From Haloferula sp. (GTDB lineage Bacteria > Verrucomicrobiota > Verrucomicrobiia > Verrucomicrobiales > Akkermansiaceae), in NCBI RefSeq assembly GCF_049672945.1, contig NZ_JBATWY010000099.1, positions 4,401 to 36,400 of the forward strand: 32,000 bases of DNA. Reading direction: 5' to 3'. This document shows positions 10,456 through 17,232 of this stretch, in pieces. Under the pieces are notes generated by a model. That model made no database searches, had not been told where the DNA came from, and saw only the letters and a list, made by a program, of their open reading frames with translations. The position numbers and the translations under genes are program-made. The first letter of the stretch is position 1. Each line of letters starts with the position of its first letter.

Positions 10456-10609
10456 AGCGAGGCGGTTTTCCCATTTCGAAGCTACCGTCGGACTGATTGG
10501 AAAAAACTCACAAGATTCCACATGCATGCATTTCATTTCATGCTTTCTTAGTCATGTGCCCGGTGGTGAAACTGCTGGGCGGAAACAAACATACGACCCA
10601 ACCAAAACT

Positions 10610-11311
10610 ATGAAGCATCCCCTAAATGGAATCCTTGCAAGCGCGTTTCTTCTCTCTGGAAGCCTTTACGCTGCTGACCTGCCACCAACTGCTGAAGAGC
10701 AGAAAGCACTGACCCCGAAAGCGGTTCTTGATCAGCTGATGGCCGGCAACGCCCGCTATGCCGAAGGCAAGCTCGCCAATCCAAATATCGAAAAGCGTCT
10801 CAAAGCCACCTCGACCGGCCAGTTTCCGAAAGCCTACATTCTTTCGTGCGTCGACTCTCGAGTTCCGGTTGAAATGGTCTTCGATCAAGGAATCGGCGAT
10901 GTCTTCGTCGGCCGCGTTGCCGGTAATATCGAGTCCGTCGAACAACTTGGTTCGGTTGAATTTGCCACCAAAGCCGCCGGCGCCAAGCTGGTGATGGTCC
11001 TCGGCCACGAAGCTTGTGGCGCCGTCAAAGGAGCCTGCGATCACGTCAAAATGGGCAACCTGACCGCACTTCTTGCTGAAATCGAGCCCGCCGTGAACGC
11101 GGTCGAAGGCTTCGAAGAGGATCAGGAAAACTCGAAGAATCCCGAATTCGTCGCAGCTGTGATCGAGAAGAACGTGCGGATGACCGTTGCCGACCTGCGC
11201 AAGCGCAGCGAAGTCCTTTCCGAGTTGGAAAAGAACGGTGACATCATGATCGTCGGAGGCGTTTACGACCTCGACGACGGCAAGGTCACCCTTCTCGACA
11301 TCGCCGAGTAA
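10610..11311 (+). CDS. beta-class carbonic anhydrase with N-terminal Sec signal peptide (exported)
   Basis: The ATG at 10610 gives MKHPLNGILASAFLLSGSLYA/ADLPP. The beta-CA zinc and active-site blocks are CVDSRVPVEMVFDQGIGDVFVGRVAGN and VLGHEACGAVKGAC. The upstream part of the track ORF (from 10292) has no CA similarity. Confidence 0.9.
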   Translation: MKHPLNGILASAFLLSGSLYAADLPPTAEEQKALTPKAVLDQLMAGNARYAEGKLANPNIEKRLKATSTGQFPKAYILSCVDSRVPVEMVFDQGIGDVFVGRVAGNIESVEQLGSVEFATKAAGAKLVMVLGHEACGAVKGACDHVKMGNLTALLAEIEPAVNAVEGFEEDQENSKNPEFVAAVIEKNVRMTVADLRKRSEVLSELEKNGDIMIVGGVYDLDDGKVTLLDIAE

Positions 11312-11350
11312 GTCTCGGCGAAAGCCTCTTGTTGGACAAAGTATGAACCA

Positions 11351-11380
11351 AAAACGGTCGCCTTCGGGCGGCCGTTTTTT
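11351..11380 (+). terminator. Rho-independent terminator of the carbonic anhydrase gene
   Basis: AAAACGGTCGCC-TTCG-GGCGGCCGTTTT hairpin with one G:U pair, followed by a TTTTTT run. Confidence 0.65.
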
Positions 11381-11405
11381 CTTACACGCATTGGGGGTTC
11401 CCGTC

Positions 11406-11508
11406 GTGGCATGACCGTCCCGGTCATGATTGCAAGAGTCTGCGGGGCCGCTTGAACTTGGCGCTGTTCTACCTTCCGGATGAGCCATGACCGAGACGGT
11501 CATGCCAC
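11406..11508. repeat. paired hairpin / 14-bp terminal inverted repeat element in a 400-bp convergent intergenic region
   Basis: GTGGCATGACCGTC (11406-11419) is the exact reverse complement of GACGGTCATGCCAC (11495-11508). Each arm is also a local hairpin: CATGACCG-TCC-CGGTCATG at 11410-11428 and CATGACCG-AGA-CGGTCATG at 11486-11504. Confidence 0.5.
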
Positions 11509-11717
11509 GGTGCCAGCAGCTGGTTACCGATCTTTGAACGGCGTGCCATTCGTCACCGTTCTCAAAATCTGGAGCCCGATCTACCATGATTGAGCGGATG
11601 ATTTCAGGATGTCGTGCCTTTCATCCTCCTCATCCAATTCATCTTGGTCCAAATCCCTACCCGCACCTCATTACCCTGGCCACCGCCACCACTTGGCCAC
11701 CCTAATCTTGGTAAACC

Positions 11718-12545
11718 CTACTGCTTTTCAAGGCGCTGCTTCAGCTCCTTCAGGGTTTTCTCCATGCTTTCCAGCAACTCCATGGCCTCATTCACCGGCA
11801 GCTTCGGATCGGGCAGCGTTGAGAGTTCCTGCATCGTCGAAACAATGATCCCAATGAAGAGATTCAGGATCGTGAATGTCGCGATGATGATGAAAGGCAC
11901 GAAAAATGCCCAAGCCCAGGGATGAACTTCCATGACTGGCCGGACGATCCCCATCGACCAACTCTCCAAGGTCATGATCTGAAAGAGGGAGTAAAGGCTG
12001 TGGCCAAGACTTCCGAACCACTGGGGATGACTCTCACCGAACAGCCCGGTCGCCAGCACCCCTGCGGTGTAGAAGAAAATCGCCATCACCGCGACCACTC
12101 CCAGCAAGCCGGGAATGGCATGAAGGAAAGCCGCCACGACACGCCGAAGCTGCGGAATCACCGTCAGCAAGCGCAGAACCCGGAGCACTCTCAGCGATCG
12201 CAGCACCGACCACGGCCCGATCCCCGGAACCAGCGCGATCCCCACCACGAGGAGATCGAAAATGTTCCAGCCATTCCGCCAAAACAAGCGGCGGTAGGCG
12301 AAGATCTTGATCGCCAACTCAAGGATGAAAAAAACCAGACAGGCTTTGTCGATCATCCTGAGGATCGTCCCGTGGCGCTCCATCATCGCCGCCGAGGTCT
12401 CGAATCCGAGAATGACGGCATTGATCAGGATCACCACCACCACCACCATCTGCATCCGTGAGCCATCAATCCACTCGGCCAAACGCAGACGTCCGCCCGA
12501 GACACCCGGGGAACCGCGCAAGGCAGCTAGGTCCTCTTCACTCAT
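11718..12545 (-). CDS. bacterial voltage-gated sodium channel (NaChBac/BacNaV family, single 6-TM domain)
   Basis: The S4 segment has Arg every third residue (LRSLRVLRVLRLLTVIPQLRR). The pore/selectivity filter LFQIMTLESWSMGIVRPV carries the NaChBac TLESW signature. There is a C-terminal coiled coil (ELLESMEKTLKELKQRLEKQ). The start is trimmed to the ATG at 12545 (MSEEDL..) so it does not overlap the upstream regulator gene. Confidence 0.9.
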   Translation of the reverse strand: MSEEDLAALRGSPGVSGGRLRLAEWIDGSRMQMVVVVVILINAVILGFETSAAMMERHGTILRMIDKACLVFFILELAIKIFAYRRLFWRNGWNIFDLLVVGIALVPGIGPWSVLRSLRVLRVLRLLTVIPQLRRVVAAFLHAIPGLLGVVAVMAIFFYTAGVLATGLFGESHPQWFGSLGHSLYSLFQIMTLESWSMGIVRPVMEVHPWAWAFFVPFIIIATFTILNLFIGIIVSTMQELSTLPDPKLPVNEAMELLESMEKTLKELKQRLEKQ

Positions 12546-12579
12546 CGACACCTGATCATTCGAATTTCCTGAGTCACGC

Positions 12580-12891
12580 TCAACCCAGGATTTCAAGCAA
12601 CTCGCCAATCGAATGGCGACTCTCCAACGGATGCCGGAAGCGGGCTTTGCGGTTGATGGTGTAGTGGTTTCGACGCCCATCCTTGCGCACTTTCAGCACC
12701 TTCTCTTCGATCAACTCCGCGAGAATCCTCTGCACCGCACGCTGGGTAATCCCCACTTCGTCCGCAAGGTCCCTGATCCGCATTGCCGGCTCACGATCCA
12801 GAACCACCAGGATATGGAAGTGATTGGTAAGAAAAGTCCATCCACTACCCACAGCAGGACTCGAAGATGCTCGCGATGATTTTTGTTGCAT
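12580..12891 (-). CDS. winged-helix transcriptional regulator (ArsR/MarR-like)
   Basis: MRIRDLADEVGITQRAVQRILAELIEEKVLKVRKDGRRNHYTI forms an HTH plus wing. The start is either the ATG at 12891 or the GTG at 12903. It lies 34 nt upstream of the channel gene on the same strand. Confidence 0.8.
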   Translation of the reverse strand: MQQKSSRASSSPAVGSGWTFLTNHFHILVVLDREPAMRIRDLADEVGITQRAVQRILAELIEEKVLKVRKDGRRNHYTINRKARFRHPLESRHSIGELLEILG

Positions 12892-12898
12892 GAATTTT

Positions 12899-12924
12899 AA
12901 CACACGATACTCCGGACGTGTGTT
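12899..12924. promoter_or_regulatory. candidate operator: perfect 8-bp inverted repeat in the divergent regulator/sbtA control region
   Basis: AACACACG-N10-CGTGTGTT sits in the ~90-bp gap between the winged-helix regulator start and the sbtA start. A regulatory function is inferred only. Confidence 0.3.
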
Positions 12925-12981
12925 GCTTAGCGCCGCTCATTTTGAAAGTCAAGCGGGCACCTCAGGCAATACCTGATCGCC

Positions 12982-13935
12982 GTGGACCTTCTCATTCAGA
13001 ATCTGATCTCTCCCGTCGTTCTTTCGTTCGTTCTTGGAATGCTCGCCCGATGGGTGAGAAGCGATCTGGAAATTCCGAGTGCCATCTACCAGGGGATGTC
13101 GATCTACCTGCTCTTTGCCATCGGCCTTAAAGGAGGCGTCTCCCTCTCGGAAACTCCAGTAAGCGAGCTCATCGCGCCTGCCGGACTGACGCTCGTGCTC
13201 GGTGCCCTCACCCCGCTGTCCGCCTTCTTCCTGCTCCGCAGCTTCGGCAAGTTGAGCCGGGTGGACGCCGCGGCGACCGCCGCTCACTACGGTTCGGTTT
13301 CGGCCGTGACCTTCATCGCCAGCCTCGAGGCGGTGAAACTCGCAGGCCTGCCCTCGAATGGATACCTCCCCGCCCTGCTGGCAGTCCTTGAGGTCCCCGG
13401 CATCATCATCGGCTTGCTCCTTGCGCGTCAATCGCGCGCCGGCGGATTGAAATCGGCCCTGCACGAAGTCGCCACCGGCAAGAGCATCTTCCTCATGGTC
13501 GGCGGACTGGTCATCGGAGCGGTCTGCGGAGCCACCAAGGTCGAAGGCGTGGCGCCCTTCTTCGTCACCCCGTTCAAAGGAGTGCTCTGCCTTTTCCTGC
13601 TCGAGCTTGGAATGGTCGCGGCGGGACGAATCGGCGACCTCAAGAGCGCCGGCTGGCGACTCATCGTCCTCGGATGCTTCCTTCCCATTTTCCATGGCAC
13701 CATCGCCACTTCTCTGGCCATGTGGATCGGCATGGCACCCGGCGGGGCGGCGGTTTTCGGAGCCATGGTCAGCAGCGCCTCCTACATCGCGGCACCAGCC
13801 GCCGTGCGTATCGCCTTGCCCCAGGCCAGTCCCGGGATCTATCTTACCCTCTCACTTGGAGTGACCTTTCCCTTCAATCTTGCGATCGGCATTCCCATCT
13901 ATCTCAAAGTCGCCGCTTACCTCTACCAGACATGA
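12982..13935 (+). CDS. sbtA: sodium-dependent bicarbonate transporter SbtA-family permease
   Basis: GTG start. It is polytopic, and MDLLIQNLISPVVLSFVLGMLARWVRSDLEIPSAIYQGMSIYLLFAIGLKGG is the typical SbtA N-terminus. It shows a two-fold internal repeat architecture. Its stop overlaps the sbtB start (ATGA). Confidence 0.9.
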   Translation: MDLLIQNLISPVVLSFVLGMLARWVRSDLEIPSAIYQGMSIYLLFAIGLKGGVSLSETPVSELIAPAGLTLVLGALTPLSAFFLLRSFGKLSRVDAAATAAHYGSVSAVTFIASLEAVKLAGLPSNGYLPALLAVLEVPGIIIGLLLARQSRAGGLKSALHEVATGKSIFLMVGGLVIGAVCGATKVEGVAPFFVTPFKGVLCLFLLELGMVAAGRIGDLKSAGWRLIVLGCFLPIFHGTIATSLAMWIGMAPGGAAVFGAMVSSASYIAAPAAVRIALPQASPGIYLTLSLGVTFPFNLAIGIPIYLKVAAYLYQT

Positions 13936-14249
13936 GCAAAAAGGTTTCACTCAAGCTCGTCACCATCGTCACCGAAGGTCTGCTTAAGGAAGAGTTCATG
14001 ACCCTGCTGCGCAAGCATGGAGCCACCGGCTTCACCATCACCCGCAGCGAAGGCGAAGGCTCGCGCGGAGCCAAGACCCGCGATTGGGAAGGTCCGAACC
14101 TCCGTTTTGAATGCATCGTTTCCGAAAAAACAGCGGACATCATCCTCGAGAATATCGGGAAGGTCTACTTTGAGAACTATTCGGTGATTGCCTGGATTAC
14201 CGACGTCACCGTTCTCCGGGGAAGCAAGTTTGTCGGAGACAGCGAGTAA
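13932..14249 (+). CDS. sbtB: PII-like signalling protein SbtB
   Basis: The ATG at 13932 gives MSKKVSLKLVTIVTEGLLKEEFMTLLRKHGATGFTITRSEGEGSRG..NLRFECIVSEKTADIILENIGKVYFENYSVIAWITDVTVLRGSKF. This aligns by eye with cyanobacterial SbtB (KLVIVTE..GA.GYT..G.GSR..FE..KYF..VL.G..F). It lacks the cyanobacterial C-terminal CGPEGC redox loop. The track ORF from 13674 overlaps sbtA out of frame and was trimmed. Confidence 0.85.
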   Translation: MSKKVSLKLVTIVTEGLLKEEFMTLLRKHGATGFTITRSEGEGSRGAKTRDWEGPNLRFECIVSEKTADIILENIGKVYFENYSVIAWITDVTVLRGSKFVGDSE

Positions 14250-14424
14250 GCTCGGCTCACCCGCTGGACTTTCCGGAAGCGGCGGCCGTCATCAGCCTCA
14301 CCAACTCAAGCAGCCCTTCGGTTTCGGACTCCCGTTTCCACACCGCCGAAGAGACCAGCGTCAGCTTCGGCTTGCTCATTTTGACAAACACGACCCCCGA
14401 GTGAGGCAGCAGGCTGACGTCGTG
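14079..14424. repeat. direct repeat copy A (~345 bp: functional sbtB 3' end + duplicated lysR 3' end)
   Basis: By hand alignment it matches 16154..16497 at an offset of 2075 then 2073 nt. Confidence 0.9.
14257..14424 (-). pseudogene. orphan 3' fragment of the LysR-family regulator gene (last 55 codons + stop)
   Basis: I count 3 mismatches in 168 nt against 16330..16497, of which 2 are synonymous and 1 gives G to S. It would encode HDVSLLPHSGVVFVKMSKPKLTLVSSAVWKRESETEGLLELVRLMTAAASGKSSG* and has no upstream part of the gene. Confidence 0.8.
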
Positions 14425-14490
14425 TTGCAAAGCACCATTTCACATTCGTTTCTTTCCAAATGCCGAGGGATTCGCTTTCCTACCACCATA

Positions 14491-16137
14491 ATGAAACGAC
14501 TTGTTCCGATGCTTTGCCTTTTCTTCGCTTGTCCAGGCTTTGCCAACGAGGCAGCCTTGCAGGCTCAACTCAAGGAACTTCAGAAAGTCACGGATGCTCT
14601 GGGAGAGCCGGATGCAGAGAACCAAAAGGAAGTCTACGCGGTCCAGATTGCCCGGTCGACGACCCAGTCTCTTGCGACGCAATTCTCCAGCGGCAACTTT
14701 CAATCAATGCAGGCGCAGATCCAACAGTCGTCATCACAACTTGCGGCACTTCCCAATGACTTCCGAAAGGCTTTGAATGCGTTCAACATCGAACTCGAAA
14801 AGCACTTGCAAGAGCTGAACGAGGCTCGAATCGAGGAACTCGAAGACTTCTTCGCGCGCCTGAGAGACGAAATCATCGCCGCGAAAAAGCCCGAAGACCT
14901 CGACCCACTCCTTGAGGAAATTTCGCAGCGATCCACAGACCGCAGCTACGGTTCAGGGAAGCTGAATCAGGAAATCTCAAATCTTCAGCAGAAGGTCTCC
15001 CAAAGTTCAGCCATCGTTTCCGAGTGGCAGAACTATCTCATGGCCGAAAGCATCAACGATGGCCCAGCCTGCAAAAGAGCTCTGGAGAATGTTTCACGCT
15101 ATCTAAGCTCCAACCCGCTAATTCCCCGCTCCCACGTGTTGCGACTCTTGAATCCCCAGGTCTCCGTTCCGGCACCAACACCGCCCAAACCCGAGAAAGG
15201 TGCTGATCCCACGTCGGCAGCCGACGCTGAGGCTTTTACTCCGTTTCCTGAAATCGAAAAGGCACTCGAACGCGGCGGCGATTGGAATGAAATCGCGAAG
15301 TTGCTCGCCGCGCTACCCCCAGCCCAACAAGCCGACCAACGGATCAGCGAGTTCCGAAGTGCCATCGAAAAACTCATCACCCTTTCTGCCTTGGATGAAG
15401 CGGTTTCGTTCCTCGAACTGATCGACGCCATCATAAATGCCAACGAGGAAGCATGGATCCTCAAAGGCACATCATTCCGCGCAGCACGGGACAGTTTCCT
15501 GATGAAGTCCCTCCAACGGCACTATGCCGAGACTTTGAAAAAGTCCGAGATCAAGGCCACTTCTCCGGCCCAACTTCTCGATCAGCTGACTTCCCATTAT
15601 TTGGATCTCCGCGAGTGGGCCTTGGCCTCAAAGGTGCTATCGGATCAGGAAGCCTTGGCCCGGCTTGATCGCTTCGGTAGTGAGCGGATCTACTCAAGCG
15701 ATGCAGAAGCCCTGAAGGCGCTCGCGCGAGCCGAGGCCGCCGCCTCGGCCGAAGAAATCGAGCTCGCGATCAAATACTATCGGCTCGCTGCGGAAAAGTC
15801 CTCCGACGCGCGGGTCTTCCGGGCCTCATTCGAGGGCCTCAAGGCCTTGAAGGAAACCAAGCCTGAGGCCTTTGAAAAGGCGGAAGAGGAAGCGAGAGAG
15901 GACGCGGCCATCCAACGGGCAAAGCGAAAAAGCTACCTCGTCCGCGACAGTCGCAATCGCTCGATGGAATCCATGGCACAGCAGGTGGGAAAAGATGGTG
16001 AGATCCCCGACAAGTTGAAGAATTACATCCAAAAATTGCTGAGAGACGAAATGCCCGACATTCGCATCAACTTCCTTGAGACCATACTCGATGAGTCCAG
16101 CGATACCACGACCCGCGAGGACAAGGCCGAGCACTAA
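14491..16137 (+). CDS. secreted, predominantly alpha-helical hypothetical protein (548 aa), no recognisable family
   Basis: The ATG at 14491 gives the signal peptide MKRLVPMLCLFFACPGFA/NEAALQ. The remainder is a long E/K/Q/A/L-rich helical or coiled-coil-like sequence with a Pro-rich linker (VPAPTPPKPEKGADP). Sampled lines are about 45-52% GC, against about 60-65% in the neighbours. The first 101 codons of the track ORF (from 14188) are antisense to the lysR fragment and were trimmed. Confidence 0.75.
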   Translation: MKRLVPMLCLFFACPGFANEAALQAQLKELQKVTDALGEPDAENQKEVYAVQIARSTTQSLATQFSSGNFQSMQAQIQQSSSQLAALPNDFRKALNAFNIELEKHLQELNEARIEELEDFFARLRDEIIAAKKPEDLDPLLEEISQRSTDRSYGSGKLNQEISNLQQKVSQSSAIVSEWQNYLMAESINDGPACKRALENVSRYLSSNPLIPRSHVLRLLNPQVSVPAPTPPKPEKGADPTSAADAEAFTPFPEIEKALERGGDWNEIAKLLAALPPAQQADQRISEFRSAIEKLITLSALDEAVSFLELIDAIINANEEAWILKGTSFRAARDSFLMKSLQRHYAETLKKSEIKATSPAQLLDQLTSHYLDLREWALASKVLSDQEALARLDRFGSERIYSSDAEALKALARAEAAASAEEIELAIKYYRLAAEKSSDARVFRASFEGLKALKETKPEAFEKAEEEAREDAAIQRAKRKSYLVRDSRNRSMESMAQQVGKDGEIPDKLKNYIQKLLRDEMPDIRINFLETILDESSDTTTREDKAEH

Positions 16138-16153
16138 CAGCTTGACAGACATT

Positions 16154-16497
16154 CGTGATTGCGAAGGCCCTGATCTCCGCTTCGAATGCATCGTTCCCGA
16201 GGAAACGGCGGACACCATCCTCAAAAACTGGGAAGGTCTACTTCGAGAACTATTCGCTGATTGCCTAAATTACTGACGTCACCGTCTTGCGGGGAAGCAA
16301 GTTTGTTGGAGCTGGCGAGTGACTTCAACTCACCCGCCGGACTTTCCGGAAGCGGCGGCCGTCATCAGCCTCACCAACTCAAGCAACCCTTCGGTTTCGG
16401 ACTCCCGTTTCCACACCGCCGACGAGACCAGCGTCAGCTTCGGCTTGCTCATTTTGACAAACACGACCCCCGAGTGAGGCAGCAGGCTGACGTCGTG
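16154..16497. repeat. direct repeat copy B (~345 bp: decayed sbtB 3' end + functional lysR 3' end)
   Basis: See copy A. The boundary between the roughly 81%-identical and roughly 98%-identical parts falls at the lysR stop codon. Confidence 0.9.
16157..16322 (+). pseudogene. decayed 3' fragment of an sbtB-like gene
   Basis: It reads ..RDCEGPDLRFECIVPEETADTILKN against sbtB ..RDWEGPNLRFECIVSEKTADIILEN. A 2-nt deletion then shifts the frame, followed by an in-frame TAA equivalent (gcctaaatt). The sbtB 5' two-thirds are absent. Confidence 0.8.
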
Positions 16498-17232
16498 CGG
16501 CAACACCCCGACACCGGCACCTCCCGCGACCAGCCCGAGCATTTCCTGAAGTCCATCCGCCTTCATCCGGACCTTGGCCACAAAGCCAGCACGTCCACAA
16601 AGATCGGCAAGCATTGCCGGTCGACCAGGAAAGTGATTCTCGTGCAGACTGACAAAGGGCTCCTCCGCCAGTTCGGCCAGATCCACCGACTTCCTCAGAG
16701 ACAACAAGTGGTCGTCCGGCAGCACCACCGCCATCGGTGTCTTCTTGATCGCAGCCACCTGAAACTCATTCGCCAGTTGCGGGCATGGCGTGCCTAACAG
16801 AGCGAGATCAATCTCATCCTCCCGCAAGGCTTTCTCCTGCTCATGAGGCGACATGCTGCGGATCACAATGCACGCATCATCATGCTGCTGGTTGAAGGTC
16901 CGCATCGCACTTGCCAGAAAACCCGGCAAAGCCGTCTCGATAAAACCCACCCGGATCGTCCTTCTCAGCGGCTTGCTGAAGACCTCCGCGGCCAACTTGA
17001 GATCCCCCGCCCGACGCAGCAAATCCTGCGCGTGCGGCAACACGCCCGTCCCCGCCTCCGTCAGCGACAACCCACTCGCATCACGCTCGAAGAGCGGCAC
17101 CCCGAGTTCATCCTCAAGGTCTCGAATTTGCCGCGAGACCGCCGGTTGCGAAATATTCAACCTCGCCGCCGCACGACTGATACTCCGCTCAGCGGCCGCC
17201 ATCACGAAATAGCGCAAATGCCTCAGCTCCAT
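16330..17232 (-). CDS. LysR-family transcriptional regulator
   Basis: The ATG at 17232 gives MELRHLRYFVMAAAERSISRAAARLNISQPAVSRQIRDLEDELGVPLFER, the canonical LysR HTH, followed by a substrate-binding domain. It is divergent from the pirin gene. Confidence 0.9.
   Translation of the reverse strand: MELRHLRYFVMAAAERSISRAAARLNISQPAVSRQIRDLEDELGVPLFERDASGLSLTEAGTGVLPHAQDLLRRAGDLKLAAEVFSKPLRRTIRVGFIETALPGFLASAMRTFNQQHDDACIVIRSMSPHEQEKALREDEIDLALLGTPCPQLANEFQVAAIKKTPMAVVLPDDHLLSLRKSVDLAELAEEPFVSLHENHFPGRPAMLADLCGRAGFVAKVRMKADGLQEMLGLVAGGAGVGVLPHDVSLLPHSGVVFVKMSKPKLTLVSSAVWKRESETEGLLELVRLMTAAASGKSGG

Follow-up and report, generated by a model that had tools for sequence, protein, structure and literature searches.

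The 32,000-nucleotide (nt) stretch of a Haloferula sp. genome analyzed here (contig NZ_JBATWY010000099.1, positions 4,401 to 36,400; hereafter, the window) includes two convergent genes, sbtB, which encodes a PII-like protein and follows the bicarbonate transporter gene sbtA, and lysR, that are separated by an insertion carrying a single orphan gene, denoted geneX. The insertion is bracketed by direct repeats that consist of the 3' ends of sbtB and lysR, and the two halves of this duplication differ in age: the orphan sbtB tail is old, whereas the orphan lysR tail is young or rejuvenated. The history that we favor, with a probability of about one half, is an old illegitimate duplicative insertion followed by homogenization of the lysR half by homologous recombination, that is, gene conversion. 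The features involved are listed below (all coordinates are those of the window, and the structure is read from the assembled contig).

13932..14249, + strand: intact sbtB-like PII gene, 105 amino acids (aa), its last 57 codons lying in copy A (Pfam P-II, E=6e-18)
14079..14424, no strand: direct repeat copy A, sbtB tail plus 7-nt spacer plus lysR tail (repeat search, alignment)
14257..14424, - strand: orphan lysR 3' tail of 56 codons, stop included, matching the end of the live lysR at 98.2% identity (alignment)
14425..14443, no strand: left junction, where about 5-19 nt of filler separate the lysR homology from the module homology (alignment)
14444..16152, + strand: inserted module, about 47 nt upstream, the 548-aa gene and 15 nt downstream, 89% identical to L026:129-1837
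14491..16137, + strand: orphan gene geneX, 548 aa, the sole open reading frame (ORF) between the repeats
16154..16497, no strand: direct repeat copy B (repeat search, alignment)
16154..16322, + strand: orphan decayed sbtB tail with a frameshift, a TAA stop and several changes at conserved residues
16330..17232, - strand: intact lysR, 300 aa, divergent from a pirin gene (Pfam HTH_1 and LysR_substrate)

Both copies are recovered independently by a repeat search (families D1 and D2, spacing 2073/2075), and the alignment agrees, placing them about 2.07 kb apart at the positions assigned in the first-pass annotation, which was made from the letters alone; they are the only two copies in the 5.28-Mb assembly. 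Each copy comprises the last 57 sbtB codons including the stop, a 7-nt spacer, and the last 56 lysR codons including the stop (168 nt). The first-pass annotation had named the same three components, along with the correct arrangement of an intact sbtB and an orphan lysR tail at copy A and an intact lysR and a frameshifted sbtB tail at copy B; for the spacer, it had given 8 nt. In copy A, the sbtB part spans 14079-14249, and the complement of the lysR stop codon occupies 14257-14259. The intact SbtB is 95% identical to P0003 at the amino acid level. The orphan sbtB tail has lost 2 nt between 16226 and 16227, which shifts the frame, and contains an in-frame TAA at 16266-16268 that replaces TGG at a position where all homologs have Trp.

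The 346-bp duplication is 89% identical overall, and this identity is distributed unevenly. The sbtB parts match at 139 of 171 positions (81.3%, counting the 2-nt deletion in B) and the spacers at 3 of 7, whereas the lysR parts match at 165 of 168 (98.2%), with differences only at 14265, 14313, and 14350; the contrast between the sbtB and lysR parts is highly significant (Fisher p=1e-8). By the maximum chi-square test, the breakpoint lies after 14255, one base short of the lysR stop complement, with a value that none of 5000 permutations reaches (p<2e-4). The counts made by hand in the first pass (about 98% identity for lysR with 3 differences in 168 nt, about 80% for sbtB plus a 2-nt indel, and a switch at the lysR stop) are thus reproduced by the computed alignment, in which no uniform divergence is seen. 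In terms of synonymous divergence (dS), the two copies are separated by 0.64 in sbtB and by 0.048 in lysR.

Comparison with the contig L027, which represents a relative without the insertion, allows the changes to be assigned to individual copies. Among the 169 comparable sites of the sbtB tail, 13 show a state shared by A and B and distinct from L027, 10 are specific to A, and 19 are specific to B; among the 168 sites of the lysR tail, the corresponding numbers are 24 shared, none specific to A within the repeat, and 2 specific to B, with all three sequences differing at one site. The A-specific changes in the sbtB tail are synonymous in 9 cases and nonsynonymous in one, an excess expected of a live gene. 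The B-specific changes (7 synonymous and 12 nonsynonymous, plus the 2-nt deletion and the stop) fit neutrality (p=0.33) and not constraint (p=2e-6). The notion that tail B evolves under constraint, suggested by NG86 omega values of 0.15-0.27, was dropped, given that its own synonymous fraction of 7/19 fits neutrality. Counting only their own changes, the two orphans differ sharply, with 19/169 in the sbtB tail against at most 1/168 in the lysR tail (p=2.5e-5). In phylogenetic trees, the lysR tails are sisters on branches shorter than 0.01, and those of sbtB, with long branches (0.065 and 0.17), fall together with other lineages in an unresolved polytomy. Tail B is closest to the SbtB of the same genome (78.6%), and no functional SbtB of the B type, that is, with 77-94% identity, was found among 5.8 billion proteins. 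With one orphan old and the other young or rejuvenated, no single event suffices to account for the locus. Hypermutation during break-induced synthesis was considered as the cause of the 18% divergence and rejected by reasoning: the density of changes is far too high, and their end after 177 nt is too abrupt.

The inserted module and its junctions

Judged by homology, the DNA between the repeats is a discrete module. The geneX product contains an N-terminal signal or lipoprotein-like peptide, and its AlphaFold2 model is an all-helical prediction of low confidence (mean predicted local distance difference test score, pLDDT, of 47). It has no match in Pfam, PADLOC, protein sequences of the PDB, phages, or plasmids, and no homolog in the 34 other genomes of the genus. 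Among 5.8 billion proteins, there is exactly one relative, with 86% amino acid identity, encoded in L026, a metagenome contig from the European Nucleotide Archive. At the DNA level, window 14444-16152 corresponds to L026:129-1837 with 89% identity, and nothing else in L026 matches; there, the module is found in an unrelated context, next to a RayT/IS200-like gene and serine dehydratase genes. The module thus exists elsewhere, as would be expected of a copied segment; no second copy was found in this genome. Between the window and L026, geneX shows a dS of 0.27 and a nonsynonymous divergence (dN) of 0.07 (dN/dS 0.26), such that the gene is apparently subject to purifying selection between its two known members. 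As the first-pass annotation stated, the inter-repeat DNA is lower in guanine and cytosine (GC): 54.4%, while the genome has 58.2% and the genes on either side about 60% (sbtAB, 59.8%; lysR, 60.6%).

Several additional features were observed around the module. Long open frames run antisense through both lysR tails (14188-16137 and 16261-16797, both on the + strand), and the first of these continues into the frame of the inserted gene, amounting to 649 codons from a TTG at 14188; most likely, these frames are by-products of high GC, and the ATG at 14491 is conserved, coinciding with the start in L026. In L026, the module is located between two copies of a 26-nt motif with the hairpin core AAAAGG-ACACA-CCTTTT (L026:1-26 and 2003-2028). 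The neighboring gene, which resembles Y1 transposases of the RayT/IS200 kind, is 80% identical to G000:C52:3604-4724, and L026:33-118 is an 85-nt element that recurs in G000, twice on contig C215 and also on C133 and C98. We considered that the module might move as an IS200/RayT-type unit and rejected this possibility: the 26-nt motif is missing from the window junctions, and its one occurrence in the genome is on contig C52. A search of this genome for a donor or an empty site of the module found the region upstream of the RayT-like gene on C52 to be unrelated.

On the right, homology to L026 ends at 16152/16153, abutting the first base of copy B within 1 nt; on the left, it ends about 13-19 nt past copy A. 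The flank of the module in L026, TTCGATTGC, resembles the window sequence at the right junction, TTCGTGATTGC, overlapping the sbtB sequence CG(C/T)GATTG. This likeness possibly reflects microhomology between the native flank of the module and the start of the orphan sbtB tail (16154-16162), with the caveat that the L026 flank is a proxy for the source, 11% diverged. Neither end of the insert shows terminal inverted repeats (the best end-to-end inverted alignment scores 6, compared to a shuffle mean of 7.3), the only ORF yields no transposase, integrase, or recombinase in Pfam and PADLOC searches, and there is no tyrosine or serine recombinase between or beside the repeats. Target-site duplications of transposons are 2-15 bp long and identical, unlike the 346 bp with 89% identity observed here, in agreement with the first-pass conclusion that the repeats are not of this nature.

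Retention of the duplicated tails as transcription terminators was also considered and rejected, the folds downstream of sbtB, lysR, and geneX having z-scores between -0.5 and +0.4. As a separate observation, a hairpin, CTTGC-GGGGAA-GCAAG, followed by a T-rich run, is present at 16286-16301 (+ strand), about 150 nt downstream of geneX. Two substitutions in the orphan sbtB tail produce it, one specific to this copy and one common to L027, and copy A lacks the stem; the hairpin is terminator-like by pattern alone, with a regional fold z-score that is not significant.

The sbtB-lysR junction in related lineages

As predicted, relatives have an empty site in which sbtB converges directly on lysR. 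In four Logan contigs from three other lineages, the two genes converge across 7 nt, with neither insert nor repeat; identity to the window is about 89% in L027, L028, and L034, 88-91% in L036, and 72-79% in the distant relative L029, which also has the whole island from carbonic anhydrase to SbtB abutting lysR. These comparisons support the insertion as the derived state. The island in question, which includes genes for carbonic anhydrase, an ion channel, a helix-turn-helix protein, SbtA, and SbtB, spans 10456-14256 in the window; Pfam searches also confirm the ion-transport channel, a winged-helix regulator, and the divergent pirin gene nearby. Two further genes of the island are the following.

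10607-11311: beta-carbonic anhydrase gene (Pfam)
12982..13935, + strand: sbtA-like bicarbonate transporter gene (Pfam Sbt_1, E=8e-108)

The intact lysR, in contrast to the island, is a core gene, with the order lysR, pirin, DoxX-like, and flavodoxin genes retained in G001, G004, L029, and L032, and it is the 3' end of this core gene that is duplicated. Between the same core genes, the island is absent from G001 and G004: in G001, 11 nt separate the end of a small DUF6172-like gene from the stop of lysR, and G004 is likewise empty by gene order. In L032 and L033, purT occupies the same place, between the DUF6172-like gene and the lysR stop. Because the space between the DUF6172-like gene and lysR differs among the relatives, the region downstream of lysR is variable, with the boundary between island and core located at the lysR stop. 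In G002, the same carbonic anhydrase/sbtAB island adjoins Mnh antiporter genes.

Across the three lineages represented by the window, L027, and L036, the synonymous divergence of lysR is 0.35-0.56, about twice that of sbtA together with the 5' half of sbtB, 0.18-0.35 (window 13555-14249 and 16330-17098). Together with the contrast between L027 and L036, which share 95% identity in the sbtB tail and 80% in the lysR tail, this difference suggests a spread of sbtAB alleles between lineages independently of lysR.

Origin of the duplication

According to the history that we favor, a 1.7-kb segment with one orphan gene would have entered the convergent sbtB/lysR junction in this Haloferula lineage in one illegitimate event that needed no recombinase and was of the template-switch or microhomology type. 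In this event, 346 bp of the target would have been copied, leaving both genes intact, with an orphan tail of each beyond the insert; the geometry of the repeats, the junctions, and the absence of element features all point in this direction. Given that a fresh template switch would produce identical repeats, a second process is needed. The insertion would be old, and the orphan sbtB tail would have decayed neutrally since then, while the lysR half was homogenized later, most likely through gene conversion in which the intact lysR, 2 kb distant, served as donor to the orphan tail. Alternatively, the source could be a conspecific empty-site allele, with a right-hand crossover inside the orphan tail producing the same outcome. 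The near-identical tract, the 24 states shared against L027, and the significant breakpoint are all as expected of gene conversion. Selection would restrict the surviving B-into-A tracts to the lysR side, because a tract extending into sbtB would import the frameshift and the stop; hence the tract would end near the gene boundary, which explains the approximate position of the identity switch but not the exact one.

Several observations weigh against this history. Conversion between tails that are about 15% diverged would be inefficient, so that repeated homogenization of the lysR half only must be assumed, and, by symmetry, the sbtB half could equally have stayed homogeneous. The tract ends about 10 nt from the stop, which is tighter than selection alone needs, a coincidence that we estimate at roughly 5-10%. 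Furthermore, the sbtB tail of copy A is unexpectedly distant from its orthologs, with dS of 0.80-0.89, whereas codons 1-49 of this gene give 0.18-0.26 (Fisher p=0.006), so that at least one further recombination event is needed. Finally, L027 and L036, both of which have the empty site, differ at 8/171 positions in the sbtB tail and at 34/168 in the lysR tail (95% versus 80% identity, p=1e-5; dS 0.15 versus 1.09). This discordance, the reverse of that in the window, amounts to reshuffling at the same boundary and makes plausible a two-allele, mosaic origin, in which the sbtB tails come from different sbtAB alleles and the lysR tails from near-identical core alleles.

Such a mosaic, which could arise by homology-facilitated illegitimate recombination, a replacement akin to C-terminal displacement, Campbell-type integration of a circularized fragment, or unequal exchange bridged by foreign DNA, is in our assessment the main rival, possible although less likely. 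The identity switch at the lysR stop would then simply mark the island/core boundary, which is where the island ends in comparison to the island-less G001 and G004 and where the genealogies of the sbtAB island and lysR become discordant in the relatives. The dS of 0.64 between tails A and B is, moreover, at the between-lineage level, and the tree offers no support for A and B as sisters. A difficulty lies in tail B, the changes in which are of the neutral type, unlike those of a recently functional allele. The sbtB orphan must accordingly predate the lysR orphan by far, which would require two or more separate structural events along with a donor with a matching lysR. The lack of a functional B-type SbtB in the protein databases and the affinity of tail B to the genome's own SbtB also disfavor a foreign allele, and a homologous crossover about 10 nt from the stop would hit the least conserved part of lysR. 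The first-pass annotation had offered both explanations of the asymmetry, and, between the two, homogenization of the lysR half is favored by the old, neutral decay of the sbtB tail and the near-unchanged lysR orphan, with a different origin of the sbtB tail staying a rival on account of the discordant genealogies.

The locus could also be misassembled, either as a chimera or as a loop wrongly resolved during metagenome assembly; in reality, the site might be empty and the 2.07-kb unit separate, as a circle or tandem array, or the contig might combine two strains. The genome is probably metagenome-assembled (258 contigs, N50 43.5 kb, 95% complete), with a smallest contig of 1511 nt that resembles a binning cut-off, and a near-identical 168-nt repeat does make a loop in an assembly graph. 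We nevertheless deem an artefact unlikely. The novel junctions (lysR tail-filler-module and module-sbtB codon 50) have no sequence in common through which they could have been falsely joined, so that such molecules must exist; with spacings of 48, 37, and 74 nt, the three lysR differences allow the copies to be phased by ordinary k-mers or reads; the assembly contains no alternative contig for the locus; and a chimera would leave unexplained why one orphan is decayed and the other is not. Highly improbable is a mobile element with an unusually long target duplication or a site-specific integration, prophage- or integrative-element-like, that supplies a replacement gene end. The geometry of duplicated gene ends resembles attachment (att) sites that restore the target, the module has moved between genomic contexts, and in L026 it adjoins the transposase-like gene between the two hairpin motifs; however, the insert lacks integrase, transposase, terminal inverted repeats, and hairpin ends, the 26-nt motif is not found at the window junctions, a duplication is not produced by transposition of the IS200/IS605 type, and searches of phages and plasmids found no relatives.

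Comparison with known rearrangements and implications

The duplicative insertion proposed here is most readily compared to fork stalling and template switching and microhomology-mediated break-induced replication (FoSTeS/MMBIR), the description of which is largely based on copy-number variants in eukaryotes (Hastings et al. 2009, PMC2621351). The resemblance includes an insert derived from elsewhere, a target duplication of hundreds of base pairs, possible microhomology or short filler at the junctions, and no recombinase; unlike in those cases, we infer the mechanism from two junctions, at one of which the possible microhomology is with an 11%-diverged proxy flank. Conversion between a gene and a duplicated fragment is matched by the near-identity tract (3/168 differences), the 24 shared lineage-specific states, the diverged borders, and a partner 2 kb away in direct orientation; the departures are that only one half of the repeat is homogenized and that the tract ends at a gene boundary. 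From sequence comparison, the donor of the conversion could equally be a conspecific allele or the in-genome copy.

C-terminal displacement by homology-facilitated illegitimate recombination, as described for effector-immunity loci of type VI secretion systems (T6SS) and Rhs (Kirchberger et al. 2017, PMC5361080), similarly leaves an orphan 3' tail downstream of the new DNA, with the end of the live gene intact and one junction illegitimate. In the present locus, by contrast, both of the convergent genes have left an orphan tail, so that the repeat is a true direct one; the inserted cargo, one unrelated gene, is not another version of the displaced module; and the relative ages of the orphans misfit a single displacement event. 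Campbell-type or att-site integration also yields flanking direct target repeats that restore the target genes and are, in principle, excisable by recombination. Here, however, there is no integrase, replicon, or element gene, and 346 bp is long for an att core. The first-pass annotation had proposed either a duplicative insertion or Campbell-type integration of a circular molecule; the empty sites bear out a derived insertion, but the circle is no more than a candidate, given that the 2.07-kb unit carries no replication or integration function, which counts equally against a Campbell-type route to the mosaic, and that a single crossover, although compatible with the geometry, predicts equal donor-resident divergence in both halves, a pattern that the repeats do not show. 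Altogether, known processes suffice to explain the locus, and no new mechanism or molecular system is required.

The discordances at the sbtB-lysR boundary indicate that homologous exchange has repeatedly uncoupled sbtAB from lysR in this clade. We give little credence to the more far-reaching idea that, in this Haloferula clade, the boundary is a recurrent, recombinase-free point of exchange for whole modules such as the carbon-uptake island and the orphan gene, with the duplicated ends serving as built-in recombination arms. If this were the case, the 2.07-kb unit could pop out, amplify, and be re-captured, in effect, a reversible cassette behind a bicarbonate-uptake operon.

Under the history that we favor, the locus would be a natural record of the gain of a single foreign or orphan gene by a bacterial genome without the involvement of a mobile element, in which duplication of the target let two tightly abutting convergent genes both survive. 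It would also provide an internally controlled, dated example of segmental homogenization next to pseudogene decay and flag a junction where island and core alleles reshuffle in several lineages. The gene gained in this way, geneX, is an ORFan with two known members that is now located directly downstream of sbtAB.

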